DNA of 64,000 nt, from the IMG/VR virus record IMGVR_UViG_3300023440_000001, positions 1 through 64,000 of that record; one strand, given 5' to 3'. Shown here piece after piece: positions 4,730 through 54,021 of the stretch. Within the stretch, counting starts at the first letter, position 1, and every line of letters begins with the position of its first letter. The translations under genes and the position numbers were made by a program. Under the pieces are notes generated by a model. That model was not told the origin of the DNA. It made no database searches and saw only the letters and a program-made list of their open reading frames with translations. This DNA is from a virus.

Positions 4730-7700
4730 CTATTCTCCAAACAATCGAATGGTGTTGGCTCTTGTCACATTGGTTCGCTCACGCTGAATATCGATATTCA
4801 GATGAATGCTATTAGACGAAGTGCTCGGTATACTTCGTATCTGTATGATTGCATTCTGAACACCAAAGGATGCCAGAGCCCCTTCTATTATTGCTTTAAT
4901 GGTCGCCGAATCCATGTCGGTCGCAACTGGTTCCGGAGAAGGTCCATTGATATCAATCGCCTGCAGATTGAAAGGTGAATTCCGTATCCGTTGCTCCTGA
5001 CTCATCCAGCCCAGACCGAAGTCGTGGGCATCAAATCCGGCCTGTTCGGCGGTTAACATCTGCACATCATCCACGTTGACAGCCGGATTCATCACCGGCT
5101 CCATCATGGATGGCAGGTAGTGGTCCTGGAAGTAGCGAGTCAAATCCAGTTCCTTTTTAGATATGTCACGACGCCGATTCCAGGCCATGTTTAATACCAT
5201 GCGCATCTGGGCATCGACCATCTGAAGAATGTTGTCCTGTTCATCGGGTGGAGTGGATAGAAATGGGAACAGGAACGGCCGATCCCAGTACGGCAGCGCA
5301 CGAATGGCCTGACCCATTCGCTGACCATAGGTATCCTGTGGATCCTGATTCTCATTCGATTGTCCACCAACCAGGGCCAGGTTATGATTTACTCCCTGCC
5401 AGGGAGAACCAAAACCGCGGTCCACCCCGAGCCCCTGGGCTTCAGCAGTATGCAACCGGCGCATCAGAGGTTGCATTGTATCCTCCGAACGATTCAACTT
5501 GATACGATTAAACTGAATTGCCATATCACCCCAGCGTACCGAATCGGTGAAACTACCGGCCAGTTTATCCAGTTCTTCATCCGGTAGCTTAGGAAAGAGT
5601 CGCTTGAAAGATGCACGTATATCTTCATAACTGCTGCGCAGAAGTCGAGCCCGATTATACTCGAACTCGTGAGCAATCATCTCTGATACAAACTCGTAAT
5701 CATTCTTCGTATTATATCCACGCTGTTTCAGGAAACCGGCAACCCGCTTTTCCAGTGCGGGAGTCATTCCGGTTTTGCGATAGAATCCGGGTGGATCTAA
5801 TTCCATCAAGGCAGTATGGAAGTACTGGTGGGAACGTTCATGACGAATCAACTGCTTTATACGAGAGAGTTTGGCATTTATATTGTTAGCGATCAGAATC
5901 ATTGGAGAGTCATCGAACTCTTCTATCCATTGACGCAGGGCCTGGCGCTCTTTGTCCAGCAGACGAATCTGACCCACTTCACCATTCAGTAGTTTAACGA
6001 TCCGGTCACGATAGGTGGCATTCAGGATCGGAATAAAAGTACCTATCGCTTCCGCATTGATTTCCCCCTTTGCAATGAAGTTCAGTGCTTTCCTGGATAC
6101 TCCAATAATACCGCGCCATGGCGATCCGAATCCCTGGTCCTTACCGATACCCTGTGCTGCCGGGTTATGCTGTTTGCGGGAACGCGATGCCATCCCGCGT
6201 TCCGACATTGCCGAGATCGTCCAACCAACGGTAGTGCGCTGCATCTCTTTCAGAAACTCCGGGTTCCTGGTAGCCAGATACATCATCTGAGCCTTGTAGA
6301 ATCGCACCCGGTCAAAATACTGGGACATCTCACTCATCTCTTCAAAGCGATCCGGAATGTACCGGGTTCCGGTTATGCCACGATAGATACCATGCATAAT
6401 TCCATAGGCAACACCCAGTGGCGCAGTTATGGAAGCCAGTACCGGACCGCCGAATAACCAGCCACCGATTCCATAAGAGATAGCCCCCTGGATGGGATCG
6501 TCTACCGATCGCAGCCCGCGGCTATAGGGTTCGATCCAGTGCTGATAGGGCTTTGCCCAGTTCTTAAACTCCCGACCATACAGAACAAATCGCTCGTATT
6601 GTTCTTCCGGCGAGTAGAGACCGAATAGCTTGGAATGCAGCGGACTGCGCAGGTGGGTAAACTTCTCCCAGATACTACCCATAATTCGCTCGGGCAGGGT
6701 GTACTCAGCGGCAGCTTTAATGTTCTCATTCAGAGAGAAGTTCTGATATTCCGTATCGGGCGATAGGATCTGAGAGAACTTAAACCGATACGGATACATT
6801 TCCCATTTCCACATCATGGCCCGACGTTGGCGCTGTAGCTTGTTCAGTTCTCTGATCTCGGCTTCCCCCAGTACACCGGCTTCTTTCTGCTGTTGCAGGA
6901 TCTGCCAGGTATCTCGAAACTCCTGACTGAAAGGAGCCGCATTGATGAGTACCTTTGCCCGATCCAGAAAGCTATAAGCCTGTGCCGGATTCCCATACCC
7001 CTGAGCCAGATATTGAGCCGCCAGCTGTCGAGCCGTTTCCAGACGGTTCATCGTCTCTTCGTAAAGACGGGGATCGTAACGTACCTGGAAAGTACGTATC
7101 TGAGTGGGGTCATCACGGTTTACGTATAGCAGGATACCCTTACTCTCGTTGAGAATGTTCAGGTAGACATTGAGCTGGGTAATATGTTTGGATTTGGGCC
7201 AGTGGAGTCTCTTAAATCCCTGTGCTCCGATAGTCTTGATTTCTATCGGCATGTACCCATGACGGGTGTTCTTACTCTGGATCAATATGTCCACATAGCC
7301 CTTAATATTATGATAGGGATCGTATATCAGTGTTTCCGCCTTGGTATTCTTGTTCAGCCGGGTTAGCATCTCCTGTATGATACGGTGAGTTCGGGTCCCG
7401 GCATCCAGGATATCTTCTTCCATCTCTGTCAGCTCATCCCGGATACCAATCATTCGCAGTGCCTGCTCATAGGCGGAGTAACCCAGCTGAGAGGGACCAG
7501 CGGGAAAGGTCAGGCGGACATTTCTGGCAGTTTCATACCCTTCTCCAGGCAGCAGCAGTTCACCGAAGGGAACCTTTGTATTATGAGTACAGGCACCCGG
7601 CACACAGAATGAATCATCTGTATCCACTTCATATCCGTACACTGGACCCCGATAGTGCGCTCTGCGTATGTATTCGATCTCCAGTCGCAACCATTCGTAC

Positions 7701-10700
7701 TCGGTAAACCTGGTGTTCCATTCATATTCATACCAGCTGGTCGGGTCTCCGGGCAGGCCATTTATGTCCATACCACAGAGCATTGCCAGTTCACGAGCTG
7801 CTCGACGGCTGTAGTAAATGCGTCTGTCTTCAATCCATCCCACATAACCATGTTGCACCAGAATGTTCCAGGCCTGATAGGTGATGGCTTCCGTGGGCAG
7901 CTCAAAGTACAAATACTCGTCTGTTTCATCCCGATGGGCAAAAACTGCCATGAATTGGATAAAGACTGTCAGATCCAATCCATAGAAGTTCAGTGGCAAT
8001 CCTTCTTCAATGATACGTACCAGCAGCTTCCGCAGTGGCTCCACCTTATAAATGCCGGAGCTGGGCTGGACATCAAATAGATCCGCCAGTAGTCGGCGCG
8101 CTTCTGGCGCGCATGGCCCGGATAAGGTGAAATGCTGACTGTTCAAACGATCTATGGAAGACAGTAGTAGAGCGATCAACCGCACTATCCTACCGGTAAG
8201 CGGTACGTCGTCATTGACCGTTCCCCGCACCTTTTTCAGATGTAGTACATCGGGCATACTGATCTTTAACAGTGGATAAGTAACCCGCATATCTTCTGTC
8301 AGATCCCGGGCCTTTACCCACTGTTTATCAATCCAGAAGGGATGTTCTTCGGTAACCTTAATCTCCCAGGGCAGACCCCTAATCTTGATGACGTATATCT
8401 CTTCATCTACTTCCCGGATGGCTACTGCCTTTACCGGATAGAAGCGTCCCTTGACGGTACGGATCAGGTCACCTGGCTTAACGGCATCGGCTCGTACCAG
8501 ACTACCGTTTACTTCTACCATTGAGTCAGGTGTCAGACAGTACGGATCGGAGTGTTTAAACTCATCTGGCATCCAGGAAGGCATTTCGTTCCGTATCAGA
8601 CCCACCTTTTCGTAATCCGTTCGGGGACGCGGAAAGAGTCGGCGGAAGCCCTCGTTGATTAGCAACATATCCCCCAGGTTCTCATCCCAGTAGAAGCGAC
8701 GGAAGCTATCCATTTCATCGGCTGAAGCAAACACCGGCTGCTCGCCGGCATAAGGCTCGTTACCGCCCCACATAGCAGCGGAGGTGATGAATCCCATTAA
8801 ACCAGCAGGTTCAATGAATCCCCGATAAACCTGTTCGGCTATCAGCTGACGTGTATCCCATGGAGTGGTAATTTCACCGTGATAGGGAGACATGGTGCCG
8901 GATACGAATTGACCAAACTGCTGACTACCTTCCAGGCCCAATGCCGGAGCCCCGGCATAGATCGGACCATAACCCCACAGCTTTCTCTGATTTTCACTCA
9001 CACCGTCAGCAGTCAATACAGCACGTGCCTCTTCCACATGCATGGGTTTGTTTGAAGCAAACGGATGCAGCAGGTTATACAGCCGACCCACTGTTACACC
9101 CAGCAATGGCCCGACAATGGGCACTTCTGAAAACGGCGTGCTGGGTATAACATAGGGTCGGTCCCGATAGTGTTTCTTTTCCAGATACTGTGGCGCAATA
9201 ATATCACCCAGGCTGAAGTCCAGGAAAGGCAGGTCTTTAAAGATGAACTCTTCTATCTTGGATCCATATAGTGATGGCGACGCTTTGTACTGGGACTTAA
9301 GCCGTACATACCAGTTCGGCACCCAGGCACGGATACGACCACCTTCTATGGGAGTTGTTCCGGTTGTCCAGCCGGCGCCCCTACGATAGGGTACCTCTTC
9401 TTCACCCGAGTATATCTTACGGAGCTCATCATAGGATTTGGTCAGATCAGCAACGAATGGAGCCACCGGCGGTAGTATAGCCAGTGCCGATAATGGACCA
9501 CCTGAGAGCTGAGCCTGGGTATATCGGTTAATGGCCGCCCCTGCCAGCATACCTGGCAGACCACCCATCATAAAGCCCACTGCTGCACCGGGTATAATAC
9601 TGGTGGATTTGGGCATCAGCCCTTCCATGTACTTGGCAAAGTTGGTAATGCCGGCAATATCATAAATGCGGGCTGCCAGTAGTCGTGCGTTAACCGCCTG
9701 ATCGGCAATGGCTACCGTAAGACCTTCATCCAGCGCCGTACCATCGAACATGGGATTGACATCAAAGAAAGTATCCAGGGCATTATAGGCAGTCATCACC
9801 CCACTGAAGAAGAGCGCCCGCTTGGCCATCAGACCGGCAACACCACCCCGCCATTTACCATCTACCTTTTTAGGCAGGAAATGGGAATAACGCGCCCGGT
9901 TGAAGCCCAACCCCATGAAGTCCAGCGCCTGACCAAAGGTATCGTAAACATAGTCCATGGCCAGACTGAACAGCTCACCTTTATCCTTATGCAGTAGCAG
10001 GTATGGATCCGTATCGTATGTCTTTTGAACAATACCATAGATCTGTTCCCGATAGTTATCCGGTGGGCTATATTTAGCCGTCCAGCTTACCTCTTTGGAG
10101 AACGCTTCTAATACTCCGGCGTCGTCAGCCTGCTTCAGTACACCCAGTAACTGGGAAAGCTTCTCATAGTTTTGTTCTACCTCAGCGATCTGACGAATGG
10201 TATCCTGGCTGGTAATATTACGAAAGCGTGCCTGAGTAAAAAGCATCTGAACGAAAGCCTTATCCCGTCTGGTAGCTGTAGAGCCAACCAGATTACCAAC
10301 GGCGTTGATCAGACGGGTTGCCAGTGCACGATCATTTGCCACATCATAGGTGAGTTCCTGAGGAACATTGCTGGCGATGGACGTCAGTCGATAGTTAACC
10401 AGGAAACGCCGGAAACGGTCAGCCAGTGGTTCACCGATCGGATTGTAGAGCTCGTTCCGCAGACCACCCAGTTCCTTGGACTGCAATTCATTAATAGCTC
10501 GGGCAATAGAGCGGAACTCGGGCGTGGCTTCGGCAATCTTAAGACTACCTTTATCGAGTGTTTTGAAGAGCAGTTTTACGGCCTCATAGGCATCTTCGGC
10601 ATTGGCGAGTATGTCAGCATGCTTGCCCTGGATGGCTTCAATGAATTTGATATCCGGATCGCTTTTGGTCAGCTGAAGCGGTTTGAATAACTCCTTGAAC

Positions 10701-13935: not shown

Positions 13936-13947
13936 TAGTTATGTCAA
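13936..13947 (-). promoter_or_regulatory. Representative copy of the 11-copy motif KTGACATAHCTA (putative late promoter)
   Basis: Copies (lowest coordinate) at 5158, 13936, 17620, 27276, 29156, 31079, 39899, 42687, 51116, 52196 and 53738, all in the same orientation. Confidence 0.75.
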
Positions 13948-17568: not shown

Positions 17569-17660
17569 AACGAACACTCCTATAAAAGTGTATTACCAGA
17601 CCCTCATGGGATTCCAGTATAGATATGTCAAAGTAGTCCGTGCGTGTCGTCTCGATATTA

Positions 17661-17689
17661 TAAAAAGGCCCCCGGGAGGTGCGGGGGCC
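17661..17689 (-). terminator. Intrinsic terminator after the sheath gene
   Basis: ggccccc/gggggcc stem preceded by aaaaa on the + strand. Confidence 0.65.
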
Positions 17690-27251: not shown

Positions 27252-27311
27252 AGCACACATCTCCCCTTGCATAGGTAGTTATGTCAAAGTTGCCCCACGA
27301 ATCAGACGGGT

Positions 27312-29141: not shown

Positions 29142-30758
29142 TCACGATTCAGTAGTAGTTATGTCAAAGTTGCTCTCTGCATTCTGTGTATCATACCAGA
29201 ATATCTGCTGACGCAGTTCTTCATAGAAGCGATCAAACTCTTCATCCTTGGCAATCTTGGGTTTTGCCTCCTGTTTGCCATGCTGGTTGACCGGCTGATC
29301 TTTATTGGCAGCCAGTTTCTGCTGAGCGATGAATTGCGATTGTGCTTTATTCTGCATCTTGGACAGTTTTGCCTGTATCATAAAGGCAAAGAGCCGCTTC
29401 TCTTCTTTCGGACTCAGTGTATCCCGGCCGATTTCATTGCGGGCTTCGTCAAAGGTCAGCAGGTTGGACAGGAAGAGATTAAGTACATGGTTTTCCTTCT
29501 TGATCTTATTCTCCAGATCGATTTCCGGTATATGCAGATAAACCATGTTTTCATCGGTGAGTGTCTCTTCAGTATAGCCCAGCTCCAGCAGCAGCTCCCG
29601 GATCATATGGTTTTCAATGGCATCCTTGATGATCTGCTGGAACTTGATAGTTGTATTCTGCATTTCAGCCGCCATAACCTGGGCTGTGTTTCGATTGGCA
29701 GTATTACCCTGTCCAAATCCAACCCGGCTCATACCCAGACCGGCTAGAATGCGGTTCCACCAGTATTCCAGATACTTATCCAGATCCATGACCTGATCGC
29801 CGGAGGCAATGTTTTCGATATTAACCCGACTGGATGTTACGATGACTGCATCAGATGGTAGACTGTCCAGATAAGATGCAGTACCGTCGATCTCCGGCTG
29901 CACTGCCGGACGGTCTCGTTCCCCTACCCTGGCGTGATAGCGGGGAATGGCAAACTTAATAGCCTGCAGAATGGCCAGCTCTTCAGTTTCCCGCAGAGCC
30001 TTGATATCCGGTATGACCGGGATGGCCATGGGCATGGCAAAGAAGTACTGGCTATCGGTAGCGGTGTTATCTTTAAAGAAGATGACATTATCCGGATTCC
30101 ATTCCGGTGTGTCGTAGGAGAACAGAGTGCTGGGTTTCTGCTTCCAGCGGCGAACGTTACCAAACTCGTCCTTGTCCACAATAACACTGGTCGGAGAGAC
30201 CACAAAGTAGGCAGCCACTGGTAACAATTCCTTTCCGTCAAAGGTCTGACGGAGACGACCTCCAGAAGCTTTCAGGCTGCGGCGTTTTACTACAACCACG
30301 TTAGCATAGGCCACCAGCGAGAAGGCGATCTGTTGAAACAGCTGAAGGGTGGTAATACCCGATACCTGGGCAATCTGACGAAACCGTTTGCGGATATACT
30401 TGACGGTATTGGGGTTTCGTCCCACAAACTCAAAACCATTCTTCCATATCTGCTCTACATACTTCTCAATAGCTCTGCGCAGCAGGGACTCCTTTTGAAT
30501 GGCTCGATCCACCTCATTGAAGTCCCATTCCGGATCTTCGTAGTTGTTGCGATATATCTGTGAAACGAACTTGGCAACAGTCTTGCGAATACGCTTGACA
30601 ACACGAGAAGAGCTAATTCGCAGGGGCCGGACATTGGTAGCCGGCGCGTCCTGAAGACCCAGTTCGCTTCGATAGACCTCCCAGCGCAATCGAATGTTCT
30701 GTAGCTCTTCTTGGATGTTTAAGGGTTTGGGTTTTCGGCGCCAAAAACGTAAGTCCAT
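29142..30758 (-). CDS. Portal protein
   Basis: 538 aa near TerL; IEKYVEQIWKNG, RILAGLGMS..GQGNTANRNTA, LLTFDEARNEIG. Confidence 0.8.
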   Translation of the reverse strand: MDLRFWRRKPKPLNIQEELQNIRLRWEVYRSELGLQDAPATNVRPLRISSSRVVKRIRKTVAKFVSQIYRNNYEDPEWDFNEVDRAIQKESLLRRAIEKYVEQIWKNGFEFVGRNPNTVKYIRKRFRQIAQVSGITTLQLFQQIAFSLVAYANVVVVKRRSLKASGGRLRQTFDGKELLPVAAYFVVSPTSVIVDKDEFGNVRRWKQKPSTLFSYDTPEWNPDNVIFFKDNTATDSQYFFAMPMAIPVIPDIKALRETEELAILQAIKFAIPRYHARVGERDRPAVQPEIDGTASYLDSLPSDAVIVTSSRVNIENIASGDQVMDLDKYLEYWWNRILAGLGMSRVGFGQGNTANRNTAQVMAAEMQNTTIKFQQIIKDAIENHMIRELLLELGYTEETLTDENMVYLHIPEIDLENKIKKENHVLNLFLSNLLTFDEARNEIGRDTLSPKEEKRLFAFMIQAKLSKMQNKAQSQFIAQQKLAANKDQPVNQHGKQEAKPKIAKDEEFDRFYEELRQQIFWYDTQNAESNFDITTTES

Positions 30759-30761: not shown

Positions 30762-32015
30762 CTATATCCCCAGATTGTTTAGGATTTCCCGCACTCGTTG
30801 ACTTTCTTCGGCGGACAGACGATCCATGCAGTTGCCGGAGTGACTTGCCTGAACAGCAGCCCGTGCCTCACTCTGCGGTACATTCAGATAGACCGTCAGG
30901 AATCGCTCTAGCTCTGTCGGGCTCGGTCCGTTAAATAACTGTGTTGCATCCACGATCGGCACCCCATATGAAACTCGATCTGCGGAAACAGAGATGGTTT
31001 CGAATCCAGGAAGTGTGACGCTTTCGTCATGCCGGGTACGCTTCCGGCGATCTTCATCATCATCCGTTTCCCGCTCATTAGTTATGTCAAAGTTGTTATG
31101 TTTGGCAGACTGATTGGACGTTTTCCTGGGTGCACAGAATTCATAGGTATCTATAGCCACGATAAGACTATTGACAACTGTAATCATTATGTCCAGCCAT
31201 TTGAGCCAGGACAAATAGGTTGTCTGTTGAATCGTATCGGCCAGCTCTTTGCGCTGACGCAAAAGTAGTGAATATATGACAGAGCGTAGTTTCCAGAAGA
31301 AGCCACTCTGTCCAAACAGGTTACGAATGAACACATCCAGCAGGTTCAGCAGTCCGAAACAGTTTAACCAGCTGCCACCATATCGTCTCAATTCACTGGT
31401 GATCTTGCTTATCAGGTTGAAGCGTAGGTTGGATACGACCACAAAGAACAGACCGGCAAACATGGTGAATATGCCGTCCAGGGCAGACTTTATGAAGTTA
31501 AAGCTGATCTCCAGCGTATAGGATTTCAACCCCTGTCGGGCTATATTGCGCATGGTTTCCAGCATCACTTTCATGACCACCAGTATCCGCCGGTTTGCCA
31601 GCAGTCCTTCCCGTGCCTGTCGGGATAGTTTTAACTGATCCACCTGATCGATCTGTGCCAGGGAGTTGATCAGACAGCAGGCCAGACTCTGCACATCCAT
31701 GCGCGAACGCAGAATAGATAATGCTTCCCGGGTGAAGCTACGAGTTGATTGCAGAGCGAATTGTGTCGTTTTGATCATCAACGACTGCGGATCACGGTTA
31801 TCTTCCTCAGCCGTCTCCTGCAGGTTGGTTTTACGAAAAGACGCTTCCAGCACATCCAGCTTCTTCAACGCTTCACCAGTCATCCAAGTAAACAGGTTTG
31901 GTGTCGTCTGAACCGGTTGACGGGCAATGCTTTCAAGGAGCGCTTCGATGCTGTCGTTTAGGTACTGTGCTCCGGGTACGGCACTTTTAAGACGTTGTTT
32001 AATATTGTCTGGCAT
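30762..32015 (-). CDS. Hypothetical protein between TerL and portal
   Basis: 417-aa ORF coupled to TerL; helical, with a hydrophobic middle. Confidence 0.6.
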   Translation of the reverse strand: MPDNIKQRLKSAVPGAQYLNDSIEALLESIARQPVQTTPNLFTWMTGEALKKLDVLEASFRKTNLQETAEEDNRDPQSLMIKTTQFALQSTRSFTREALSILRSRMDVQSLACCLINSLAQIDQVDQLKLSRQAREGLLANRRILVVMKVMLETMRNIARQGLKSYTLEISFNFIKSALDGIFTMFAGLFFVVVSNLRFNLISKITSELRRYGGSWLNCFGLLNLLDVFIRNLFGQSGFFWKLRSVIYSLLLRQRKELADTIQQTTYLSWLKWLDIMITVVNSLIVAIDTYEFCAPRKTSNQSAKHNNFDITNERETDDDEDRRKRTRHDESVTLPGFETISVSADRVSYGVPIVDATQLFNGPSPTELERFLTVYLNVPQSEARAAVQASHSGNCMDRLSAEESQRVREILNNLGI

Positions 32016-34288: not shown

Positions 34289-35091
34289 ATGAATAATCCA
34301 TCACAGATGTTGTCCGCTTCTGTCTCAACCACGACCGTCTCCATCAGACCGCGTGGATAGTGGACCCATATCCAGTCCTTCATAGTTGTGTCAATCTTCA
34401 ATGCCCGCGACCTGTAGAATCCCAGTATATTGGCCATTATCTCCTTGGACAGATTGTCGCGTATCTGCAAAGACTGATACTCATTGCGACGCACCCGGAC
34501 ACCGAATCTGGCCAGCAAGTGGGTTAGCAGCCGCCGACTGCGTTCTTCTATACGAGTCAGTCGTATGGTTTTGGTCTTCTTGATAAACCCGCCCTTATGG
34601 ATCCGGATATTCGGATATGCTGATACGAGTATCTGGCGCAACGTCTCCTGTAACGCATCCTGATTCAGGTGTACCAGGAAATCCGGTATGACCAGTTGTT
34701 GCTCGATTATTGCACTCCGGGCGATAGCCTCAATCCAGTCCGCTTCCGGTGCGGTTTCTCCGAAGATAGGTATATGACGGGGAACAATGATCTGGTTATG
34801 TTTTAGTACATGGTGAGTGGACAGTTTCTTATCCGTATAGAAGGTACGAATGTCACGCCATCGGTTTTGATCCAGTAGTTCAATGGGAGAAGCCGGCGAT
34901 ATATAGCGGTAGGAGCCGCTGCGATAGGTGGATATATGTTTCGGCTGACCGAATGTGATGAGAGCCTTCACGGGAACAAACTGCCCCGAATTGAAAGCAA
35001 TCAGCTCCCGCTCACCTATCAGTTTCTCCGCTGGAGCCCAGTTCCCATTGGACTCCAGCAGAAAGTTATCTCTGGCCAGCTCGACACGCAT
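34264..35091 (-). CDS. Free-standing degenerate intein-like protein (Hint plus LAGLIDADG-like remnants)
   Basis: N-terminus aligns with the TerL intein (NGNWAPAEKL vs DGSWKPIEKV); IPDFL..LLTHLLARFGV; lacks Cys1 and terminal His-Asn. Confidence 0.55.
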   Translation of the reverse strand: MRVELARDNFLLESNGNWAPAEKLIGERELIAFNSGQFVPVKALITFGQPKHISTYRSGSYRYISPASPIELLDQNRWRDIRTFYTDKKLSTHHVLKHNQIIVPRHIPIFGETAPEADWIEAIARSAIIEQQLVIPDFLVHLNQDALQETLRQILVSAYPNIRIHKGGFIKKTKTIRLTRIEERSRRLLTHLLARFGVRVRRNEYQSLQIRDNLSKEIMANILGFYRSRALKIDTTMKDWIWVHYPRGLMETVVVETEADNICDGLFIWRQSRLD

Positions 35092-39881: not shown

Positions 39882-40136
39882 TTACCCATTGTTTTTGATA
39901 GGTATGTCAATCTGGAGTACCTGCTGAGCGCTCGGGAAGTCTTCGATATACATAAGCGTTGCAATCTTGGTCAGGTACACACATTCCCGGCCCATAATAT
40001 GGTACATCTTGTTGAAGGAATCCCAGTAGCGGTTTCCTTTCAGTGCTTCGGGTAAGTATTCTGGAGCATCACAAAGATCAGCTAGCTTGTTACGGAGCAG
40101 GAGAATATCCTGTCGTACATTGAAGTCTAGATCCAT
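39882..40136 (-). CDS. Hypothetical protein
   Basis: 84-aa ORF in the operon. Confidence 0.45.
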   Translation of the reverse strand: MDLDFNVRQDILLLRNKLADLCDAPEYLPEALKGNRYWDSFNKMYHIMGRECVYLTKIATLMYIEDFPSAQQVLQIDIPIKNNG

Positions 40137-42627: not shown

Positions 42628-42700
42628 TCGTCACCTCATTTTATCAGTGAGCCGGCTCTTAGTAAATGACTCAGAGCGGCTCACTATAGATATGTCACAC

Positions 42701-43459: not shown

Positions 43460-43490
43460 CAAATATACATAACAGAGGAGGAGATTGCAA

Positions 43491-44060
43491 ATGGTTTTTC
43501 AAATCGATGAGACCAGACAGGCCGTCCTTGACATAGAACAGGAGCTTCAACCCCTTTACGAGAAGTTTGCCCAGAACGAAGAGGAAGAGTCCGACATCCA
43601 GGAGTACGAACAGCAGATCCGGGAGTTCTTCAGCCGCAATGTAGCATTTCTGCGGCAATATCTGGGGTTTGTCACTCGCATGGAAGCGTTCAGCCGAGAT
43701 GAGTTTGCTGAATTACTGGGTGTTTCACCGGCTACGGTTAAATGGTGGGAACTGGCCAAAGGACTTCCCAACTATTCTTCTGTGCGAGCTCTGCTGCGAT
43801 TGACGAATAAGGTATTACAACTGGAACAACCTTTCCATTACGGCGATATCTACTGCCGTAACATTGCTCGTTCGATCATTCAAAAAGTACCCGCTCGCCT
43901 GAATGGCATCAATGCACTCGTTCAAGCGCTGTCGGGTATGCCACAAGAGGAGCGCCGACGGTTTATCACTTCGGCCCTGAATAACATCAGCGAACTAAAA
44001 CGTTTCGTGGAGGAAGAACATGCCAACAGCAACAGAGAAGCACCCAACACTGGTCCTTGA
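43491..44060 (+). CDS. XRE-family HTH regulator
   Basis: SRDEFAELLGVSPATVKWWELAKGLP; ATG at 43491 after AGGAGGAG; paralog of the N-terminus of 44446. Confidence 0.8.
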   Translation: MVFQIDETRQAVLDIEQELQPLYEKFAQNEEEESDIQEYEQQIREFFSRNVAFLRQYLGFVTRMEAFSRDEFAELLGVSPATVKWWELAKGLPNYSSVRALLRLTNKVLQLEQPFHYGDIYCRNIARSIIQKVPARLNGINALVQALSGMPQEERRRFITSALNNISELKRFVEEEHANSNREAPNTGP

Positions 44061-44439
44061 TGTTAAAGGCAAAGTTATTGATTGTGATCCGCAATTTGAA
44101 CACTTCCTGGGCTTTCCCTATATGCGTCTTATAGGGGAGCCGCTGACTGCTATTACACGCTCTATTGAGAACCTATCCGACTTCCTCAGGCAGGTGATAC
44201 AGAGCGGTCCCATCCGTGGCTGGTGGGACATAAAACTGAGTGGAGATCGCCGGATATATGGATTCTATAAGATGGTCTTTGATGCGCAGAAGTACAGATA
44301 TTATGTGTATATCCACGACTTCAAACTTCATATGGATATCAACACCGCTCTATCATCTCTGATTGCCGAGTTTGAAAATGAAGACATCCTGCAACTTCTG
44401 GCACTGGCTGGTCAGCTTATAACCCACAAACAACAATGA
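44020..44439 (+). CDS. Stand-alone PAS-domain protein
   Basis: LVLDVKGKVIDCDPQFEHFLGF..LIGEPL. Confidence 0.6.
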   Translation: MPTATEKHPTLVLDVKGKVIDCDPQFEHFLGFPYMRLIGEPLTAITRSIENLSDFLRQVIQSGPIRGWWDIKLSGDRRIYGFYKMVFDAQKYRYYVYIHDFKLHMDINTALSSLIAEFENEDILQLLALAGQLITHKQQ

Positions 44440-44445
44440 TGTAAT

Positions 44446-45666: not shown

Positions 45667-45723
45667 TATTGCGTAATTAGGGGCACTTTAGTATATTCTC
45701 CTAAAACCAGGAGGATATACATT

Positions 45724-46590
45724 ATGAAAAAGCGCCCTATAGTTCTGAGTATAAGCAACCAAAAGGGTGGAGTTGGGAAGACCACAACCGTATGCGCACT
45801 GGCGGAGACCTTTGCCCATAAGGGTTTTCGTGTTGGAGTGATCGATACGGATCCCCAATCTAATACTACCAGCATACTGGGTAAACCCCCTTATTCACAG
45901 GCCGAAAACATCATTGCCGTCCTGGATCCGGAGTTTGATCGACCTATCTCTGCCCTGTTTGTAGAGTCTCCGAAGATTAAGAACCTCTATCTCCTACCCT
46001 CTTCCATAAAGGCGGCTGGAATGTGGCCCGGTCTGTATGGACGTCTGAACGAATATATGATTAATATATACAGTTTATTGGCCAGGTACCTTTCGCAAGA
46101 TGCAACAATCAATGAGGACTTTGATGTCATAATAATAGATACACCACCCTCACTGGATCTGCCCATGATTAACGCACTGTCTTCCTCTGACTACGTAATA
46201 ATCCCCGTGCAGTCCGGAGACCCCTTCTCCCTAGACGGGTGGTCCGAGCTTTATCTCACCATTCAGAAGGTAAAGAAGAACACCAACGAGCGACTGGAGA
46301 TCCTGGGTATCCTGATTACCTATCACGATCCCAGATTTAACGTATGCAAATCCAACTACAGCTATATCCATGATCGTTTTCGTAGAGAAGGTATTCGGGT
46401 CTTTAATACCTACATCAGTGCTTCAGTGGAAGTCAAACTGTCTCACGTGACGAGAAAACCCATCACCATCTTTAATAAGAGTCATAAAGTCAGCGAACAG
46501 TACCGCGAGCTGACAGATGAAATCATTCAAATCCTAGGAGGTCAAATTGGCAAGGAAGAAACCAAAGAAGTCGAAGAGGCCAACAGTTGA
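45724..46590 (+). CDS. parA: ParA/Soj partition ATPase
   Basis: NQKGGVGKTT, IDTDPQSN, IIDTPPSL. Confidence 0.93.
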   Translation: MKKRPIVLSISNQKGGVGKTTTVCALAETFAHKGFRVGVIDTDPQSNTTSILGKPPYSQAENIIAVLDPEFDRPISALFVESPKIKNLYLLPSSIKAAGMWPGLYGRLNEYMINIYSLLARYLSQDATINEDFDVIIIDTPPSLDLPMINALSSSDYVIIPVQSGDPFSLDGWSELYLTIQKVKKNTNERLEILGILITYHDPRFNVCKSNYSYIHDRFRREGIRVFNTYISASVEVKLSHVTRKPITIFNKSHKVSEQYRELTDEIIQILGGQIGKEETKEVEEANS

Positions 46591-47443
46591 CGACATCAAT
46601 CAAATGTGGGGTGTTAGTGATGAGATACGCTCCGATGGTGATGTACTGGATGAATTCCCTGGCTTCGTAAAGAATAGTGTACAAAAAGACACGTACCCAC
46701 AGGATACAGGAGACGTACCTGGTACATACGACATACCACGTACGCCAGACGTACCCGATACTACCGACGTATTGCATACAGGAGACGTACCCGATACAAA
46801 AGACGTACTACATACTCCTGATGTATCCAATACACCTGACGTGCCAGGTACATCAGATGTGCCACATACGACTGGTGTGCCGGATACAGATAGTGTACGC
46901 CGACCGTCAGACGTACCCAGAAAGTACGTCAGACGTACCTCCTCACTGGACAAATATCAATGGAGCATCGATGTATATCGTCGCTGCATTCCAGATCAGA
47001 AGTCCAGAATCAAGCGCCTCTTGTTAAGGGGTATAGGTAAGTTCGTACCAAACAAACGATCTATGTTAACCCGTCGGCTATTCTCGACCATGGTTTTCGA
47101 TGAACTGTCTGATTTATTAAAAGGCAACTGGAAGATGAAGCGGGATATACCTTACTACAGGAAGGTGTGGAAAAGCCTACAGCGCGAAGGATATCTATCC
47201 TTAATCGATATGAGATTAGATGGACCACTCCATGAGCGTGGTTCGATATTTAAGGTCAAGTTTCCTTTATGGGTCGATACAAACAAAGACGTGAAGAAAG
47301 TCAGCACCAGACGCCTGATACTGGATTGTATATTGTGTACAGAATACCTAAAAGACGGCGATCTATCGGTCTTGCCTTACTTTGATATGGTTCAAAAAGA
47401 GTTGAAGAAGCGAAAGATAGATACAGAACCATTATGTTCCTAA
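46547..47443 (+). CDS. ParA partner candidate with a hexapeptide repeat tract and basic C-terminal domain
   Basis: Overlaps parA; basic N-terminus; about 13 T-x-D-V-P/L-x repeats. Confidence 0.55.
   Translation: MARKKPKKSKRPTVDDINQMWGVSDEIRSDGDVLDEFPGFVKNSVQKDTYPQDTGDVPGTYDIPRTPDVPDTTDVLHTGDVPDTKDVLHTPDVSNTPDVPGTSDVPHTTGVPDTDSVRRPSDVPRKYVRRTSSLDKYQWSIDVYRRCIPDQKSRIKRLLLRGIGKFVPNKRSMLTRRLFSTMVFDELSDLLKGNWKMKRDIPYYRKVWKSLQREGYLSLIDMRLDGPLHERGSIFKVKFPLWVDTNKDVKKVSTRRLILDCILCTEYLKDGDLSVLPYFDMVQKELKKRKIDTEPLCS
46702..46940 (+). repeat. Degenerate 18-bp tandem repeat (coding)
   Basis: Recurrent gacgtac/gatgtg cores with 18-nt periodicity. Confidence 0.8.
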
Positions 47444-47721
47444 AGGGTCGCTTACTGGTTCTCAAGGGGTCGTTAAGATGTTCCTAAAGGGTCGCTTAAT
47501 TGTACCCAACTGGTCGTCAGCTGACCAACTATTTGCTATTTTGCTTGACTAATTGGTATCCATATTAGATATTAATCGCTCTTTTGTATATAGGCTTATT
47601 GATTATGGCTAAATCATTATCCATATTGGACAAAGTTAAGCGACCCTTTAGGTACGTTCAAACGACCCTTTAGGTACCTGCATGCGATACCCTGGGTACC
47701 ACTAAGCGACCCTTTAGGTAC
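47434..47721. repeat. Iteron-type replication origin: four direct 22-bp-period repeats and four in inverted orientation
   Basis: ATGTTCCTAAAGGGTCGCTTA-like at 47434, 47456, 47478 and 47500; reverse-complement TAAGCGACCCTTTAGGTAC-like at 47637, 47659, 47681 and 47703; AT-rich spacer and flank; adjacent to rep. Confidence 0.8.
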
Positions 47722-47876
47722 GTAGTCAATTGGAAGTATAAGAATCGTAAGTATTATAATAGCATTGGTTATATATATGGACGTTTCTTTTGCACATAGA
47801 ATCGTTATGCTCTAATCAATAAATGAATATATACTACTTAGTTATACTTGATTAATTAGTTAATTGGAATTTCAAT

Positions 47877-49358
47877 ATGAAAGACAACAAACAACTGATC
47901 GCACCGGATATCGTATCCTTTACCCACTATCCATTTGGGTTCTTGAAGACACCCGAGAATCGTCCCCATCATATTATTGATATTCGTGGGCGTATTACCT
48001 ATGATGGAAAGGTAAACGAATATCGCTGGGTTGTTAAGGGAGATAAAGTTGCCGGACTCCCGGTTGGTTCTGAAAATGACCTGGAAGCATTCGTCCATAT
48101 TGAGCAAGCCCGCAGTGCCAGCACCGATAGTTTCGAAGTCAGCAAACAGCACATACTCCACCAACTTGGCTATCCAAATAACGGAAAGTACCATCTCATC
48201 ATTAACAATGCTATTACCAAGTTTCGAAAACTGAACATAACCGCATTCAACTGTCTGATGGATCCTAAACGGGGTAAGTTCTATAAGGCACTGACTTTCC
48301 CATTCTTTGATTCAGTTGGCATTCTGGGCCGTGGAGATGCTGTCAACGAGATCGATATGAGCATTGATGCCGAGCAGGTACTGGAGCAACTGTCTTCCAT
48401 GCGGCACGTTGCCTTTGTCTTTACCCTATCAAAGCCACTTCGAAGGCTGTTGGATTCTTCAAACGCCATCCCGCTGGATTGGGATATCTATGTAAGTCTG
48501 CCCGAGATTAAAAGCCGCATGTTATACCGTACTGTGAATAAGTTGAGTCATTTTAACATTGACTATATTGAACTTCGGGAAATGGGGAAGCTGCTTTCTT
48601 TGGCCTTTTATCGTAACTCTCGTATTCGAGCATCGCTGGAGAAACCCCTGGACGTACTGAAACAGGCTGGTGTCATTCATGACTATCGATTTACCGAAGA
48701 CAATGGTATCCATTTTAAGTTTAACCCCATTCGGACACAGGTTAAATCCAGCGACAGTACCCGTAAGCACCCACTTTATGAATATCTTGTCAACAAAACC
48801 AATGTGAATCCGCGCTCGGCTCGAGACTGCGTGGAGAGCTTATATTGGCGTGAGGAAGACAAAAGATGGGTCATTCGTTTCTATGAATCTCATAAGAAAC
48901 AACGTGGCTGGAATGACGGGATGCTGGTATTACTACTGAAGGGAGACCAGGAAAAGGTAAAGGATGAACTTCTGGAAGCTCGTCAATGGATCGATCAGAT
49001 GAAAGCGCAGACCAAATCAAAGGAAAGTGAACAGGAAGCCCGGGAGTATTCGAACAAACTTGATGAAATGCTGGTCAAAGCAGTTACTGAGCTTACAGAA
49101 GATGAGCTGAAAGCCCTCTACGAGTGGTCTGTTGAGAATCTTGATAACTTCAGTGTCGAACACCTGAGAAAGAATATGGCTGCAGTAAACAGTGTTCGAG
49201 AGTTGCTCGCATCACCCATCTGCAAAGGATACTTCATAAAGGCATTTCAGGAAGTATATCCGGAAAGGTTCAGAGAGATGCAAAACGCAGCCAGGAATGG
49301 CAAACGAAAGGGTAGGGAAGTGGTCAGAAATGCTATACAGCGTTCCTTATTCGAATAA
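47877..49358 (+). CDS. Plasmid-type replication initiator (RepA-like, winged helix)
   Basis: YPF..GLP..D..LGY..GKY..SRMLYR pattern resembling RepA initiators; next to iterons and parA. Confidence 0.7.
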   Translation: MKDNKQLIAPDIVSFTHYPFGFLKTPENRPHHIIDIRGRITYDGKVNEYRWVVKGDKVAGLPVGSENDLEAFVHIEQARSASTDSFEVSKQHILHQLGYPNNGKYHLIINNAITKFRKLNITAFNCLMDPKRGKFYKALTFPFFDSVGILGRGDAVNEIDMSIDAEQVLEQLSSMRHVAFVFTLSKPLRRLLDSSNAIPLDWDIYVSLPEIKSRMLYRTVNKLSHFNIDYIELREMGKLLSLAFYRNSRIRASLEKPLDVLKQAGVIHDYRFTEDNGIHFKFNPIRTQVKSSDSTRKHPLYEYLVNKTNVNPRSARDCVESLYWREEDKRWVIRFYESHKKQRGWNDGMLVLLLKGDQEKVKDELLEARQWIDQMKAQTKSKESEQEAREYSNKLDEMLVKAVTELTEDELKALYEWSVENLDNFSVEHLRKNMAAVNSVRELLASPICKGYFIKAFQEVYPERFREMQNAARNGKRKGREVVRNAIQRSLFE

Positions 49359-49538: not shown

Positions 49539-50504
49539 TTAAAATGGCAACTCTACATCTTTATCATCTATTATTACTTCATCCAGTTTATCCAGCACCT
49601 CATCGGTGGAAGGCTCCTTCTTCTGGCGCTTTCCCAGAACCAGTGTTTCCCAGACCCGCCGATCTGTCTCTTCCCGCTTTCCCCAGCACAGATTCTTAAA
49701 CTCACACCAGTAACATTCCTGACTATTCTGTTCGACCTTCGGAAAGTCACCATTAACCGTATATTTGGTTATGGCTTCAGCTGCTTCAACAACCGTATCG
49801 TTTAGTCTGTCGAAGTGCTCTTTCTTCCGGGTAGCGGTAAAGGTTCTGGCAACAGGCCAGAGTTTCTCCACGACAACAGGTCGTCCGTTCCGATCCCGCT
49901 TGATTCGACCATGCTTATCCTTCACTTCTTTGCGTCGCAACTCAAACCAGTGCAGGTTAAAACCCACCTTCTTCTTCCCCGTGGCAAAAGCATACAAGGT
50001 CAGCTGCATATCTTCATCCGGATCATAGTTCTTTAATGGGTTCTTTGCCGAGAACTTGAACTTGTGATCCAGAATGTACTCGGATGTCTCCAGGTCCACG
50101 TATCCCAGTATGGGCACACCATCAAACTCCAGGCGAATCTCCATTTCAGTGCTGATGGGATCTACAGAGCCTGCCAGATGTTTCATATGAGCCGCCAGCA
50201 TGGCACGTCCCATAGCAACAAACTCTTCTTCGCTCTTGTTTACCCAGTTATCAATCCGGTGTTTGTTTCTGGCAAACTCTTCCTGGAATACCCGTAACAC
50301 TTCATTCAGCGGCAGGTCTTCACCCGTCTCTATCTTGTGGATATAGTTCTTCTCCAGCGCCGTATGTGTTGCCCCGCCAGCAACCAGATAGGGGGTGATA
50401 GAGCCCAGTCCTTCAACATAGTTGAAGTAATACTTCCGTGGACAGGCCTTCAGCAGCTTAATCTGCGATATCGATAAATGTGGCTTTGGTAATATATAAT
50501 CCAT
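49539..50504 (-). CDS. PD-(D/E)XK nuclease (RecB/AddB/Cas4-like)
   Basis: LSISQI..CPRKYY, GYVD, DHK, QLTLY, CYWCEFKNLC. Confidence 0.85.
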   Translation of the reverse strand: MDYILPKPHLSISQIKLLKACPRKYYFNYVEGLGSITPYLVAGGATHTALEKNYIHKIETGEDLPLNEVLRVFQEEFARNKHRIDNWVNKSEEEFVAMGRAMLAAHMKHLAGSVDPISTEMEIRLEFDGVPILGYVDLETSEYILDHKFKFSAKNPLKNYDPDEDMQLTLYAFATGKKKVGFNLHWFELRRKEVKDKHGRIKRDRNGRPVVVEKLWPVARTFTATRKKEHFDRLNDTVVEAAEAITKYTVNGDFPKVEQNSQECYWCEFKNLCWGKREETDRRVWETLVLGKRQKKEPSTDEVLDKLDEVIIDDKDVELPF

Positions 50505-50827: not shown

Positions 50828-50879
50828 CCGACAAGTGGCAAAGCCCTCATTTCAGGCCCTTTTGGACGTATTGTCCAAA

Positions 50880-51059
50880 TTAGCGAATGTCTCTACCAAG
50901 ATACTCGATCTGCTTGACTTTCCATCTCGAATCCGAAGCTCGATATGCTCGGTAAGCATTAGCGATAGCACTGTTTTCGTCTTCTCCGAGTACCACAACA
51001 GAGACTTCATCGCCCTTATCAGTTAAAAAGGTCACCTTGTAGTGGCTCAATTCCGACAT
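50880..51059 (-). CDS. Small hypothetical protein
   Basis: MSELSHY...; GAGGGG upstream; motif at 51116. Confidence 0.5.
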   Translation of the reverse strand: MSELSHYKVTFLTDKGDEVSVVVLGEDENSAIANAYRAYRASDSRWKVKQIEYLGRDIR

Positions 51060-51163
51060 TGATCCAGAGCCCCTCACAAATGATTAAACGGACCCCTCCA
51101 GAGGGGGTCTCATAGTAGGTATGTCAATCGAAGGGTGCCTGGAAGGCCTGTGTGGAAAGGTTT

Positions 51164-51772
51164 TTACACTCCGTGTCTGCGGCGTATCCGTCCCACGGTG
51201 GTGTGGCTACATTTCAGCTTGCGGGCAATCTTGCGGTTGGACCAATCCGGATGGGCTTTGGCCAGTTCAATGATCTTCTGTTCCAGTTGTTCACGTGGTG
51301 GAACGACAGTTTCCACTTCCATGTCCACTTCGTTGGACTCGATGGAACGTACCGTTCCGGTTAGCCACCCAAACAGCACCAGCATGGACGGAATCAGCAC
51401 GCCGACCACCGTACCGATAACCCGGGGGAACAAGCCATCAGGTGCATATATGATCATGTAATAGACATTCAGCGCCACACTGACGATACTGGAGAGTATC
51501 AAGATAAGCTTGGCAGAAGTCGAACGAACTCCCAGACGCTGGGCATATACGGTATACTGCACCGAATAATAGATACTCAGATCCAGTGCCAGAACGAGCA
51601 TCACATTGCTCAGTGTGGAGAGATTTACCCCGAACAGTATCAGTCGGGCATCGAAGTGGCGAAGGGTGGCAAAGTTGTGTTCGAAGGTGGCCATGATATA
51701 GAACAGTGGCAATAGTTTCAGCCAAAAGCTATTAAAGCGTTCGAAGCGTTCAGCAATAGATTTCATCACCAC
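51164..51772 (-). CDS. Multi-pass membrane protein with a C-terminal HTH
   Basis: Four hydrophobic helices, then PDWSNRKIARKLKCSHTTVGRIR. Confidence 0.7.
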   Translation of the reverse strand: MVMKSIAERFERFNSFWLKLLPLFYIMATFEHNFATLRHFDARLILFGVNLSTLSNVMLVLALDLSIYYSVQYTVYAQRLGVRSTSAKLILILSSIVSVALNVYYMIIYAPDGLFPRVIGTVVGVLIPSMLVLFGWLTGTVRSIESNEVDMEVETVVPPREQLEQKIIELAKAHPDWSNRKIARKLKCSHTTVGRIRRRHGV

Positions 51773-52152: not shown

Positions 52153-52486
52153 CTACGCACCTCCATCTGTTTGTTTAATGCTCGTCTTCACGAATTAGGT
52201 ATGTCAATGATGAGCAGCTGAGATAGGGAGTGGGGGAGGATTTTGAACCAACCAGGTTGCCACAGCGATACGAAAACGTTATAGAATTAATACCCGGGGA
52301 TACCACTGCCAAAGTCAGGTGTGTAGAATGGGCACAAAATGCGTAGACTGACAGTCAACAGATAAGTAGTTGTATTTGATGGATATATGTAATTTCAGTA
52401 CCTGTGTTCGATACCATTCACTATTACACGATTCTTCGACATACCAGCAGTTGAGTGTCTTTGACATGGTAATAAGTGGGTCCTAA

Positions 52487-52861: not shown

Positions 52862-53719
52862 TTATGGTTTAAGTATGACAAATCGCCCACGATGCTGTTG
52901 ATTGTCTGCTCTTACCTGATAGAAGTAAGTCCCCGCCGGTAGACTACGCATATCCAGTTGCCGAATATGTCGCCCGGGGCCCAGCCTGCCGTATTCCCGG
53001 TGAAGAACTTCCCGACCCAACACATCATAAACTGATAATGCCACGTTGACTGCTTCCGGTATGGATAGCAGCACTGTGCCAATGGAAGTTACCGGATTGG
53101 GGTAGATAGCAATCATAAATCCCTTCGGTGGCGCCGGTGGTGTATTATCAACGACTGTCGGCGCTTCGATATTAAAGCGAACATGAGTGCTGTCCCACAA
53201 ACCCATCGTATCTGTTACAATCATCACAAACCCAGCCGGACCATAGTAATCCCCCGGATCCGGCTCCACATATAACACTCCCACCGAATCATATACCCGC
53301 ACATGATCCAAATCCTTATATAATAACACCAGCTGACCAATCGTATTATCCGGATCATACAGTATTGAATCCAGGACGGCTGAATACACCTGACCAAAGG
53401 GCAGGGTGGTTATGCTCAGCTGAACATCCGGAACACCAGCTGACACCGTATCAGAGGGGTCCGACTCATTGCCGGCACTATCCACAGCCGTCAGATAATA
53501 CACATAGAGATTCCCCGGCTGCACATCTTTATCCACCGCATGTGTATCCGGATGGGCAATCGTCTGATAGTGTGAAAACACCATCTCATTAACCGCCCGA
53601 TACAATCGATAGGAGTGCATATCCGGCTCCTTATTAGGACTCCAGTAGATGTTCAGTGAATCGGTCTGCGCATAGCCCAGAGACAGTCCGATCAGCAGCA
53701 TCATAATCCAGCGCATCAT
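52862..53719 (-). CDS. Secreted FN3-domain protein with a T9SS (Por) C-terminal sorting domain
   Basis: Signal peptide MMRWIMMLLIGLSLGYA (AGGAGG RBS), YYLTAVDSAGNES, C-terminal YPNP..VYDVLGREV..LPAGTYFY. Confidence 0.8.
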   Translation of the reverse strand: MMRWIMMLLIGLSLGYAQTDSLNIYWSPNKEPDMHSYRLYRAVNEMVFSHYQTIAHPDTHAVDKDVQPGNLYVYYLTAVDSAGNESDPSDTVSAGVPDVQLSITTLPFGQVYSAVLDSILYDPDNTIGQLVLLYKDLDHVRVYDSVGVLYVEPDPGDYYGPAGFVMIVTDTMGLWDSTHVRFNIEAPTVVDNTPPAPPKGFMIAIYPNPVTSIGTVLLSIPEAVNVALSVYDVLGREVLHREYGRLGPGRHIRQLDMRSLPAGTYFYQVRADNQQHRGRFVILKP

Positions 53720-54021
53720 GTAACCTCCTGTTTTCTCTAGATATGTCACAGATGCGCCTATATAGGGACCCAAATTCACTTCTCTCATATTTCAGACAAC
53801 GCAATGGCAAACGAATCCCGGCTCCCGAAAACGTGCCCCCCGGGTCTTACCATCGAACTTTGCGAACTACTGAATACAGCTGAAGTAGAGGAGTGGTAAG
53901 GACTTACGCCATCGAACTTGTGGAGCAGGTTCGGTAATACTCCCCTGGTATTAACTCTGTAAGGTATTCACACCAACCCACTGGTACTGATATCCCCGGG
54001 TATTGACTCTGTATCCTATTC

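Follow-up and report, generated by a model that had tools for sequence, protein, structure and literature searches.

The stretch of viral DNA considered here, 64,000 nucleotides (nt) in length and hereafter called the window, represents bases 1-64000 of a 136,294-base virus record (IMGVR_UViG_3300023440_000001, designated G000 below) that CheckV estimates to be 72% complete. A 12-base word recurs along the window, and this report evaluates that word as a candidate promoter together with the proteins that might read it. The record is that of an uncultured contractile-tailed phage, and its DNA comes from a microbial-mat metagenome (a sequencing-run search returned two DNA sets, from one mat study). 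A megablast search with 20 kb against 50,697 phage records yielded no match, and a search with the large terminase found only eight records, at 31% identity or less, with no isolated phage close.

The genes are organized in two arms. The minus-strand arm of the window encodes the tail sheath protein (17731-20439), a major head protein candidate (23695-24981), the portal (29142-30758), the large terminase (32015-34288), a ClpP-like prohead protease (40507-41052), and two giant proteins of 2707 and more than 1575 amino acids. The plus-strand arm encodes a family A DNA polymerase, a primase, a RecD2-type helicase, ribonucleotide reductase, ThyX, a RecA-like protein, and an RNA ligase with polynucleotide kinase, among others. 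A sliding-clamp-like gene (phrog_947) and clamp-loader genes are present as well.

A 12-base word in the virion gene arm

When read in gene orientation, on the minus strand, the word is KTGACATAHCTA, with the core TGACATANCTA. The first-pass annotation had reported eleven copies in the window, and all eleven were recovered. These copies and their associated features, in the order in which the minus-strand genes are read, are as follows.

53738..53749, minus strand: motif copy GTGACATATCTA, 18 nt upstream of the gene (ATG at 53719) whose product has a C-terminal sorting domain for type IX secretion
52196..52207, minus strand: motif copy TTGACATACCTA, 43 nt upstream of a nucleoside deoxyribosyltransferase-like gene (start 52152), with a helix-turn-helix (HTH) protein gene next
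51116..51127, minus strand: motif copy TTGACATACCTA, 56 nt before a small open reading frame (ORF; start 51059), which is followed by a PD-(D/E)XK nuclease gene (49539-50504)
42687..42698, minus strand: motif copy GTGACATATCTA, 59 nt upstream of the block with the ClpP-like prohead protease, whose first gene starts at 42627
39899..39910, minus strand: motif copy TTGACATACCTA, 25 nt upstream of an exonuclease gene (start 39873) that heads the block to the large terminase
34383..34394, minus strand: one-mismatch variant TTGACACAACTA, a possible weak copy, inside ORF 34264-35091 and about 95 nt before the terminase start (34288)
31079..31090, minus strand: intragenic motif copy TTGACATAACTA, 321 nt upstream of the portal gene (start 30758)
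29156..29167, minus strand: motif copy TTGACATAACTA, 30 nt upstream of a Com-like zinc-finger protein gene (start 29125)
27276..27287, minus strand: motif copy TTGACATAACTA, 24 nt upstream of a block (start 27251) that extends past the major head protein gene as far as the tail sheath gene
17667..17689, minus strand: intrinsic terminator after the tail sheath gene (eight G-C pairs, then T5), 35 nt upstream of the next motif copy
17620..17631, minus strand: motif copy TTGACATATCTA, 51 nt upstream of the next block of virion genes (start 17568)
13936..13947, minus strand: motif copy TTGACATAACTA, 28 nt before the start (13907) of a block that runs into the 2707-amino-acid giant gene
5158..5169, minus strand: intragenic motif copy GTGACATATCTA, inside the 2707-amino-acid gene and 433 nt upstream of the second giant gene (start 4725)
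1..4725, minus strand: second giant gene, of which the N-terminal 1575 codons are present before the record end cuts it; a candidate phage RNA polymerase in an alternative reading weighed below

The word, its statistics, its orientation, and its placement were all computed from the sequence of the record. A pattern scan of the window produced 11 matches, all on the written plus strand, compared with 0.05 expected from 100 dinucleotide shuffles (largest count, 2). Across the whole record, the core is present in 15 exact copies versus 0.15 expected from 20 block shuffles, whereas one-mismatch copies number 5 versus 9.25 +/- 2.6 expected. Given this excess of exact copies and the small number of near copies, the word therefore appears to be all-or-none. 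The four copies outside the window are on the plus strand (record positions 93061, 104992, 119894, and 132818), and all are inside the plus-strand gene arm. The strand and positional bias that had been proposed for genome-wide examination is thus evident: all 15 copies (11 in the window, four elsewhere) are co-oriented with the local genes, and 10 of them fall within the 5.3% of the record that the ORF set leaves non-coding.

The 15 copies occur in four versions, GTGACATATCTA (six copies), TTGACATAACTA (five), TTGACATACCTA (three), and TTGACATATCTA (one). The earlier description of the word as containing TTGACA is correct for nine copies, but the other six begin with GTGACA. The tetranucleotide AACT is weakly conserved immediately upstream, and the flanks are otherwise unconserved among 38 sites from three phages. 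The word is non-palindromic, its flanks do not pair with it, and every intragenic copy is placed in the single reading frame without a stop codon.

Nine of the window copies had been assigned to nearby minus-strand starts, and in all nine cases the end of the motif is indeed 18-59 nt from the start codon, with a GGAG-type ribosome site visible before most of them. The other two copies are intragenic, as had been noted, and lie ahead of the portal and the second giant. The statement that the copy at 17620 follows a terminator also holds, as the strong hairpin at 17689-17667 precedes it. Beyond the window, the copy at 93061 is ahead of the DNA polymerase operon, that at 104992 is ahead of the ribonucleotide reductase gene, and that at 132818 is ahead of a nucleotidase block. 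The label "late" given in the first-pass annotation is therefore appropriate for the window copies that head virion-gene blocks but not for those before the polymerase, reductase, and nucleotidase genes, such that "middle/late" is a better fit.

Two of the leaders behind motif copies have features of their own. The leaders 42627-42686 and 51059-51115 (minus strand), which are located behind the copies at 42698 and 51127, carry G+C-rich hairpins (GTGAGCCG...CGGCTCAC and GACCCC...GGGGTC, respectively) that could serve in transcript stabilisation or regulation.

The word can also be followed into relatives of the phage. A 15-base version scanned over viral contigs matched 110 stretches, which is about the estimated chance level, and only four of these stretches, on two contigs, belong to true relatives. 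The most informative genome, G001, is a complete phage of 188,693 bases with terminal repeats, a G+C content of 41% (versus about 50% in G000), and homologues of 70 of the 197 ORFs of the record (25-73% identity). It contains 18 copies of the core, 17 of them on one strand, versus none in a backwards control. Seventeen of the 18 copies are co-oriented with local genes, and the lone antisense copy begins with A. Eight of the 11 window copies have a G001 copy at an orthologous place, as listed here by the higher coordinate of each window copy.

5169 (minus strand): G001 136074, ATGACATACCTA, aligned, about 425 nt before the start of the orthologous giant
13947 (minus strand): G001 146997
17631 (minus strand): G001 158170
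27287 (minus strand): G001 168304; also a copy at 3316 in G002
29167 (minus strand): G001 170266
31090 (minus strand): G001 172191, as the variant TGACACATCTA, with T changed to C at the seventh base; G002 has TGACATACCTA
39910 (minus strand): G001 181227
42698 (minus strand): G001 183997

A ninth window copy (52207 or 51127) has an approximate G001 counterpart at 3386, before the orthologue of 51164-51772, and the 7-kb fragment G002 keeps three of three copies. The intragenic copies persist even though the surrounding protein is only 35% identical, and G001 has the same order of terminator and then motif as the window. A variant, TGACACAACTA, is found twice in the metagenome fragment L152, at orthologous places, and once in L155, although these fragments are too small for statistics. 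One T-to-C variant in L152 is located ahead of the polymerase block, and the other is inside a DUF445 gene ahead of the reductase gene, at the same offset as the copy at 104992. The T-to-C change of the possible weak copy at 34383..34394 is likewise seen at orthologous promoter places in relatives. In three fragments whose major head protein is 32% identical to that of the record, the word is not above the control level, but these fragments are 18-43% complete and thus uninformative. Overall, the word is conserved at orthologous places across diverged relatives.

The word as a probable promoter core and its candidate readers

A word that often begins with TTGACA might be taken for the -35 box of a canonical sigma-70 promoter. 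In a test for the bipartite arrangement, the -35-like hexamer was present, but a -10 hexamer 16-18 nt downstream was absent. A scan for sigma-70-type pairs found none at any motif site, and such pairs are not enriched (20 versus 22.7 expected, and 26 versus 24.4). Furthermore, none of the columns 12-34 nt after the word is conserved among the 15 copies. The available space is also very limited, as the nearest start codon in the window is 18 nt from the word, and in G001 the ATG of the Com-like gene, which aligns residue for residue with the window start at 29125, is only 4 nt after it. With start codons this close and no -10 hexamer, the word itself must therefore be the promoter core. The earlier judgment that several copies are too close to their genes to be a -35 box is upheld by the same distances (18-59 nt in the window). 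The proposal of a compact, phage-specific promoter has likewise stood up well, because the word is co-oriented with genes, mostly intergenic, found after a terminator, and conserved at orthologous places. On these grounds, promoter function of some kind can be inferred with high confidence.

If it were not a promoter, the word might be the binding site of a DNA-binding regulator, or an RNA signal for processing, antitermination, or translation. A repressor or activator site had been raised as an alternative by the first-pass annotation, and the strand-specific placement upstream of genes would also suit an RNA signal. However, the word is not a palindrome, and its flanks are neither conserved nor able to pair with it. 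It follows terminators, where re-initiation is needed, no other recurrent promoter-like element was found in the virion arm, and there is no room for a separate core promoter before the start codons 18 nt (or, in G001, 4 nt) away. A function other than promoter is thus considered very improbable.

The bases that follow the word hint at where RNA synthesis might begin. The fifth and sixth bases after it are purines in 26 and 30 of 38 sites from the three phages, respectively, and C in only two of 38. An RNA start at the fifth base would put T-G at -15/-14 and C-A-T-A-n-C at -12 to -7. Placed in this way, the word fits an extended -10 layout, with A-T-A at -11 to -9. The message of the Com-like gene in G001 would then be leaderless.

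The preferred reading, which is held with moderate confidence, is that the word, along with the weakly conserved AACT upstream, is a middle/late promoter core read by the host core RNA polymerase bearing a sigma factor that the phage encodes. Once early and middle genes have been expressed, a 242-amino-acid phage protein would displace the host primary sigma factor on the host core enzyme. The resulting holoenzyme would read the word as a single element of the extended -10 type, for which a -35 box is unneeded, and would start transcription about 5 nt past the word, in the register given above. Promoters of this type would split the whole virion arm into about eight transcription units, with re-initiation both after terminators and inside genes ahead of the portal and the second giant.

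The proposed reader is a sigma-70-family protein whose gene (record 101677-102405, outside the window) adjoins the primase gene. Its presence and conservation were likewise established from sequence. A search of PDB sequences matched 88 distinct sequences at E<=1, nearly all of which are sigma chains (best match FliA, E 5.7e-7, residues 40-181), and the protein also matches phrog_351 (E 1.8e-14). An AlphaFold model with a predicted local distance difference test (pLDDT) score of 73 retrieved sigma chains of holoenzymes in Foldseek (E 8.6e-7, about 230-300 columns), with alignments that span whole sigma chains. Pfam scores fall below the curated cut-offs (24.4 versus 25.3 bits for Sigma70_r3 and 15.6 versus 24 bits for Sigma70_r2). 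When all six frames were scanned, G000 and G001 each gave a single sigma region-2 signal, from this protein and its orthologue, respectively. The two proteins are 44% identical (E 5.5e-61), and both genomes carry the word. Among five homologues, the residues of regions 2 and 3 are largely invariant, in parallel with a word that is unchanged between the phages, whereas the C-terminal part is variable. This least conserved part (residues 192-238) forms three helices after a disordered linker in the model and has no Pfam region-4 match. Nearly all virion blocks of G001 have a copy of the word ahead of them but the sigma gene has none, which fits a cascade from sigma factor to motif. Judged from sequence, the 242-amino-acid protein would be a more economical reader of the word than a phage RNA polymerase.

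No relative of the sigma factor was found in a search of genome contigs, and none was seen in the part present of the three fragments with the 32%-identical head protein. Metagenome fragments with sigma relatives contain no exact copy of the word. One of them is L152, which carries two tandem sigma paralogues (L152:7698-9226, plus strand) that are 36% and 46% identical to the sigma factor of the record, whereas G000 and G001 have one each.

A second promoter-like class must also be considered when assigning a role to the sigma factor. It occurs in the plus-strand arm only and consists of a palindrome (TAGACT, 4 nt, AGTCTA), 12 nt, the box ATTCACTCCCT, 19 nt, and TATATT. The sites identified are listed by piece and record position.

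L001:10127-10230 (plus-strand arm): second-class site at record 70146
L002:4480-4580 (plus-strand arm): second-class site at record 82499
L002:15012-15085 (plus-strand arm): second-class site at record 93031
L003:11900-11990 (plus-strand arm): weaker second-class site at record 107919
L004:4476-4560 (plus-strand arm): second-class site at record 118495
L005:8047-8120 (plus-strand arm): second-class site at record 134066
Record 65468 (plus-strand arm): weaker second-class site

The same layout is found in G001 with a different middle box, CCTTACACGT. The two kinds of element overlap at 93031-93085, where the word copy at 93061 is within the spacer of the bipartite element. The second class is probably a class of middle promoters with an operator.

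Several observations weigh against the assignment of the word to the phage sigma factor. The sigma factor might read the second class instead of the word, and the second-class box differs between G000 and G001, as does the region-4-like C-terminal part of the protein. That three-helix end would be unneeded at a promoter that is independent of a -35 box. Alignment with PDB sequences reveals that the tryptophan pair of region 2.3 is replaced in the phage protein, and thus the reading of an A at -11 is not assured. In the deduced numbering, the C residues at -12 and -7 depart from the sigma-70 hexamer. The evidence that links sigma factor and word is their joint presence in two genomes, one complete and the other 72% complete, and in fragments, and G003 (24.7 kb, 14% complete), which encodes a 41%-identical sigma factor, has no exact copy. 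Finally, the sequencing-run search found no RNA set alongside the two DNA sets, so the start sites are inferred rather than mapped.

Alternatively, the host core enzyme might read the word with another specificity factor, either a host alternative sigma factor or an unrecognised small phage factor of the T4 gp55/gp33 kind, while the 242-amino-acid protein served the second class. A bipartite layout suits a sigma factor with regions 2 and 4, and the upstream box and the C-terminal part of the protein both differ between G000 and G001, in accord with this arrangement. The segment C-A-T-A-n-C-T-A of the word has the length of the T4 late box and shares five of its eight letters, the phage has sliding-clamp and clamp-loader genes, and the relative L152 has two sigma paralogues. 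Nevertheless, G000 and G001 each have one detectable sigma-like gene, and general Pfam and PHROGs scans gave no gp55- or gp33-like match, although no search aimed at these factors was made. A host sigma factor would not explain a word that is unchanged at 50% and 41% G+C, in what are probably different hosts. Use of the phage sigma factor on the second class is also thought less likely because TATATT resembles the hexamer of primary sigma factors, which a protein without the tryptophan pair would not be expected to recognise. Thus, this division of labor is regarded as quite unlikely.

A third type of reader is an RNA polymerase encoded by the phage, as proposed by the first-pass annotation. 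That proposal has not fared well in its particulars. Neither a T7-type (PF00940) nor a beta-prime (PF00623) domain was detected at E<=10 in six frames of G000 or G001. The beta-prime control was positive in 14 of 14 genomes, whereas the control genomes also gave no PF00940 match, such that sensitivity for the T7 type is undemonstrated. The PHROGs and Pfam scans of ORFs likewise found no T7-type polymerase. The specific candidate that had been put forward, the 55377 protein, corresponds to a 927-amino-acid ORF (55284-58067). It has no match in Pfam, PHROGs, or PDB sequences and no polymerase signal, and it has no homologue in G001, which keeps the word; it is rejected as the polymerase. The gene described as an "RNAP-like giant" (1-4725) has no family match in Pfam, PHROGs, or PDB sequences.

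Even so, the second giant is the sole remaining candidate, and it may be a polymerase to judge from one conserved sequence signature, a prospect that also counts against the sigma reading. The full-length orthologue in G001 is 2532 amino acids long, with R-S-D-L-D-G-D-Q at residue 2029; the portion of the window's giant expected to bear the motif lies beyond the cut end of the record. The three aspartates of DxDGD are kept in three of three aligned homologues (DLDGD, DYDGD, and DYDWD; P0007 and P0008 included), and a fourth, more distant protein, P0011, has DQDGD. According to PMC10770324, two-barrel phage polymerases evade sequence searches, and YonO transcribes the late genes of its phage (PMC5467207). 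The giant could be a single-chain two-barrel enzyme of the crAss gp66/YonO/P23-45 kind that is made late and transcribes the virion genes. A near-invariant word of 12-16 bases is typical of phage polymerase promoters, and the giant gene is conserved in every large record that shows the word (G000 and G001).

Searches with the giant yielded no polymerase family, fold, or homologue. For the giants, PDB sequence searches gave nothing relevant and Pfam gave nothing, and a three-homologue profile against PDB sequences also gave nothing. The best score in a protein atlas was 0.75, with no lead, a word-index homologue search returned only the query, and an exhaustive homologue search found six proteins. 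An AlphaFold model of residues 1500-2532 of the G001 giant (alignment of three sequences) had a mean pLDDT of 38 and was unusable. A DxDGD motif is expected by chance at an estimated 0.3 per phage proteome, though conservation adds weight. Moreover, the giant gene has tail and ejection genes as neighbors and is itself preceded by motif copies, and a virion-borne enzyme that read the word would switch on virion genes at the start of infection. To our knowledge, no phage programme turns on virion genes at that very early point. With the predicted start, the word would also fit the extended -10 geometry of a sigma-type promoter. Transcription from the word by a phage-encoded polymerase is therefore judged unlikely.

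In a more far-reaching version of the same idea, which is quite doubtful, the word would serve as the promoter for a novel family of single-chain two-barrel RNA polymerases of giant size (about 2500 amino acids), located among tail genes and known by DxDGD only. Were it true, the enzyme, like YonO, would transcribe virion genes, would probably be packaged, and could start the next infection. The sigma factor would then serve the bipartite class of the replication arm, and two private transcription systems would operate in one phage. A protein of this size with a conserved catalytic-type motif, rather than the 927-amino-acid candidate, merits structure determination.

Other observations concern the giants themselves. 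Both of their ORFs (4730-12853 and 1-4725, minus strand) follow tail genes. The 2707-amino-acid ORF (4730-12853, minus strand) includes a Cas4/PD-(D/E)XK nuclease-like stretch at residues 1787-1945, and a conserved V-F-D-L-E-F stretch in the second giant recalls a DEDD exonuclease, which is a candidate likeness.

Neighboring features and possible hosts

Several additional genes offer clues to the biology of this phage. A motif copy precedes the gene at 52862-53719 (minus strand), whose product looks like a secreted protein and bears a C-terminal sorting domain of the type IX secretion system (PF18962, E 3.3e-10). Type IX secretion is linked to Bacteroidota-related phyla through known families, and thus the domain hints at a host in that group. 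Homologues of the protein carry no organism names and so give no host, and only two TAnnTTTG boxes of the Bacteroidota type are present in the upstream intergenic DNA of G000. The small zinc-finger protein encoded at 28775-29125 (minus strand), which has its own motif copy, resembles the Com translational regulator of Mu (phrog_6417, E 2.3e-6).

An oppositely oriented island is found inside the minus-strand arm at 42701-49358. Its genes encode a cI-like HTH protein with a weak PAS match (42701-43285, minus strand), an HTH protein, a PAS-domain protein (44446-45666), and a ParA-type ATPase (45724-46590), and their counterparts in G001 are located at the right end of the genome. This gene content points to a module for plasmid-like or lysogenic maintenance. 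Between the two gene arms is a divergent region of 536 nt (53790-54320) with two pairs of imperfect direct repeats, one being GGTATT-a/g-ACTCTGTA and the other beginning with GCG and ending with TTAATAGGG, and with a terminator-like hairpin at 54214-54228. The region could contain early promoters or a replication origin.

Two further proteins are of interest in the context of nucleic acid binding. A Whirly-family protein (L002:12130-12585, plus strand; PF08536, E 1.4e-31) and a PC4-like protein (L003:15399-15641, plus strand; PF02229, E 5.1e-8) are encoded by the record, and the PC4-like gene is kept in G001 and L152. Whirly and PC4 proteins are single-stranded-DNA binders that act as transcription cofactors in eukaryotes.

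Comparison with known phage transcription systems

If the preferred reading is correct, the window offers a clean transcription map that can be tested, for a clade of large, contractile-tailed microbial-mat phages not described before, in which one invariant word marks about eight virion units and one small sigma gene is the candidate switch for them. Furthermore, a word that is unchanged at 50% and 41% G+C raises the prospect that the pair of sigma factor and word could be used as an orthogonal promoter system on the core enzymes of different hosts.

The late promoters of T4 are a useful point of reference. Each consists of a single 8-base box at -10 that is read by gp55 with gp33 and the gp45 clamp. 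The common feature is a short, near-invariant box in the -10 region that heads late genes with no -35 box, and C-A-T-A-n-C-T-A is of the same length with five letters in common. In contrast, gp55 is a minimal region-2 protein, whereas the sigma factor here has regions 2 and 3 and a region-4-like end, and the word extends upstream with K-T-G-A in the manner of an extended -10 element. If the predicted start holds, extended -10 promoters of bacteria would share the T-G at -15/-14 and the A-T-A at -11 to -9, and they likewise require no -35 box. The word would differ from them by C instead of T at -12 and -7, a conserved T-A at -6/-5, and the upstream AACT.

Two-barrel polymerases such as gp96 and gp64 of P23-45, YonO, and crAss-like gp66 provide the parallel for a phage-encoded enzyme. 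As described in PMC10770324, short, strongly conserved motifs private to P23-45 precede start sites, and polymerases of this kind can be fused to virion proteins. The likeness thus consists of a conserved private motif and a giant among virion genes with a DxDxD signature. However, the virion enzyme of P23-45 reads pre-early genes rather than virion genes as proposed here, the promoter sequence of YonO is undefined in PMC5467207, and the giant of this phage is only a putative polymerase.

The closest functional parallels might be found in phages that encode sigma factors of their own. In phiEco32, single-element middle/late promoters are read by the phage sigma factor gp36 (PMC8948821). Like phiEco32 gp36 and gp47 of phage 7-11, the protein described here is a distant phage member of the sigma-70 family that is predicted to redirect the host core enzyme to private promoters before late genes. 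The lineages are unrelated, given that the present phage is contractile-tailed, larger than 136 kb, and from a microbial mat, and the word is different. Likewise, the promoter of phage 7-11 is the bipartite GTAAtg-N16-aCTA, unlike the single word of this record. The likeness to those sigma factors is one of predicted role. By analogy, then, the word probably functions like the private promoters of phage sigma factors, as in phiEco32 and the late genes of T4, and it resembles an extended -10 element. The lineage and the word appear to be new, but the kind of system is already known.

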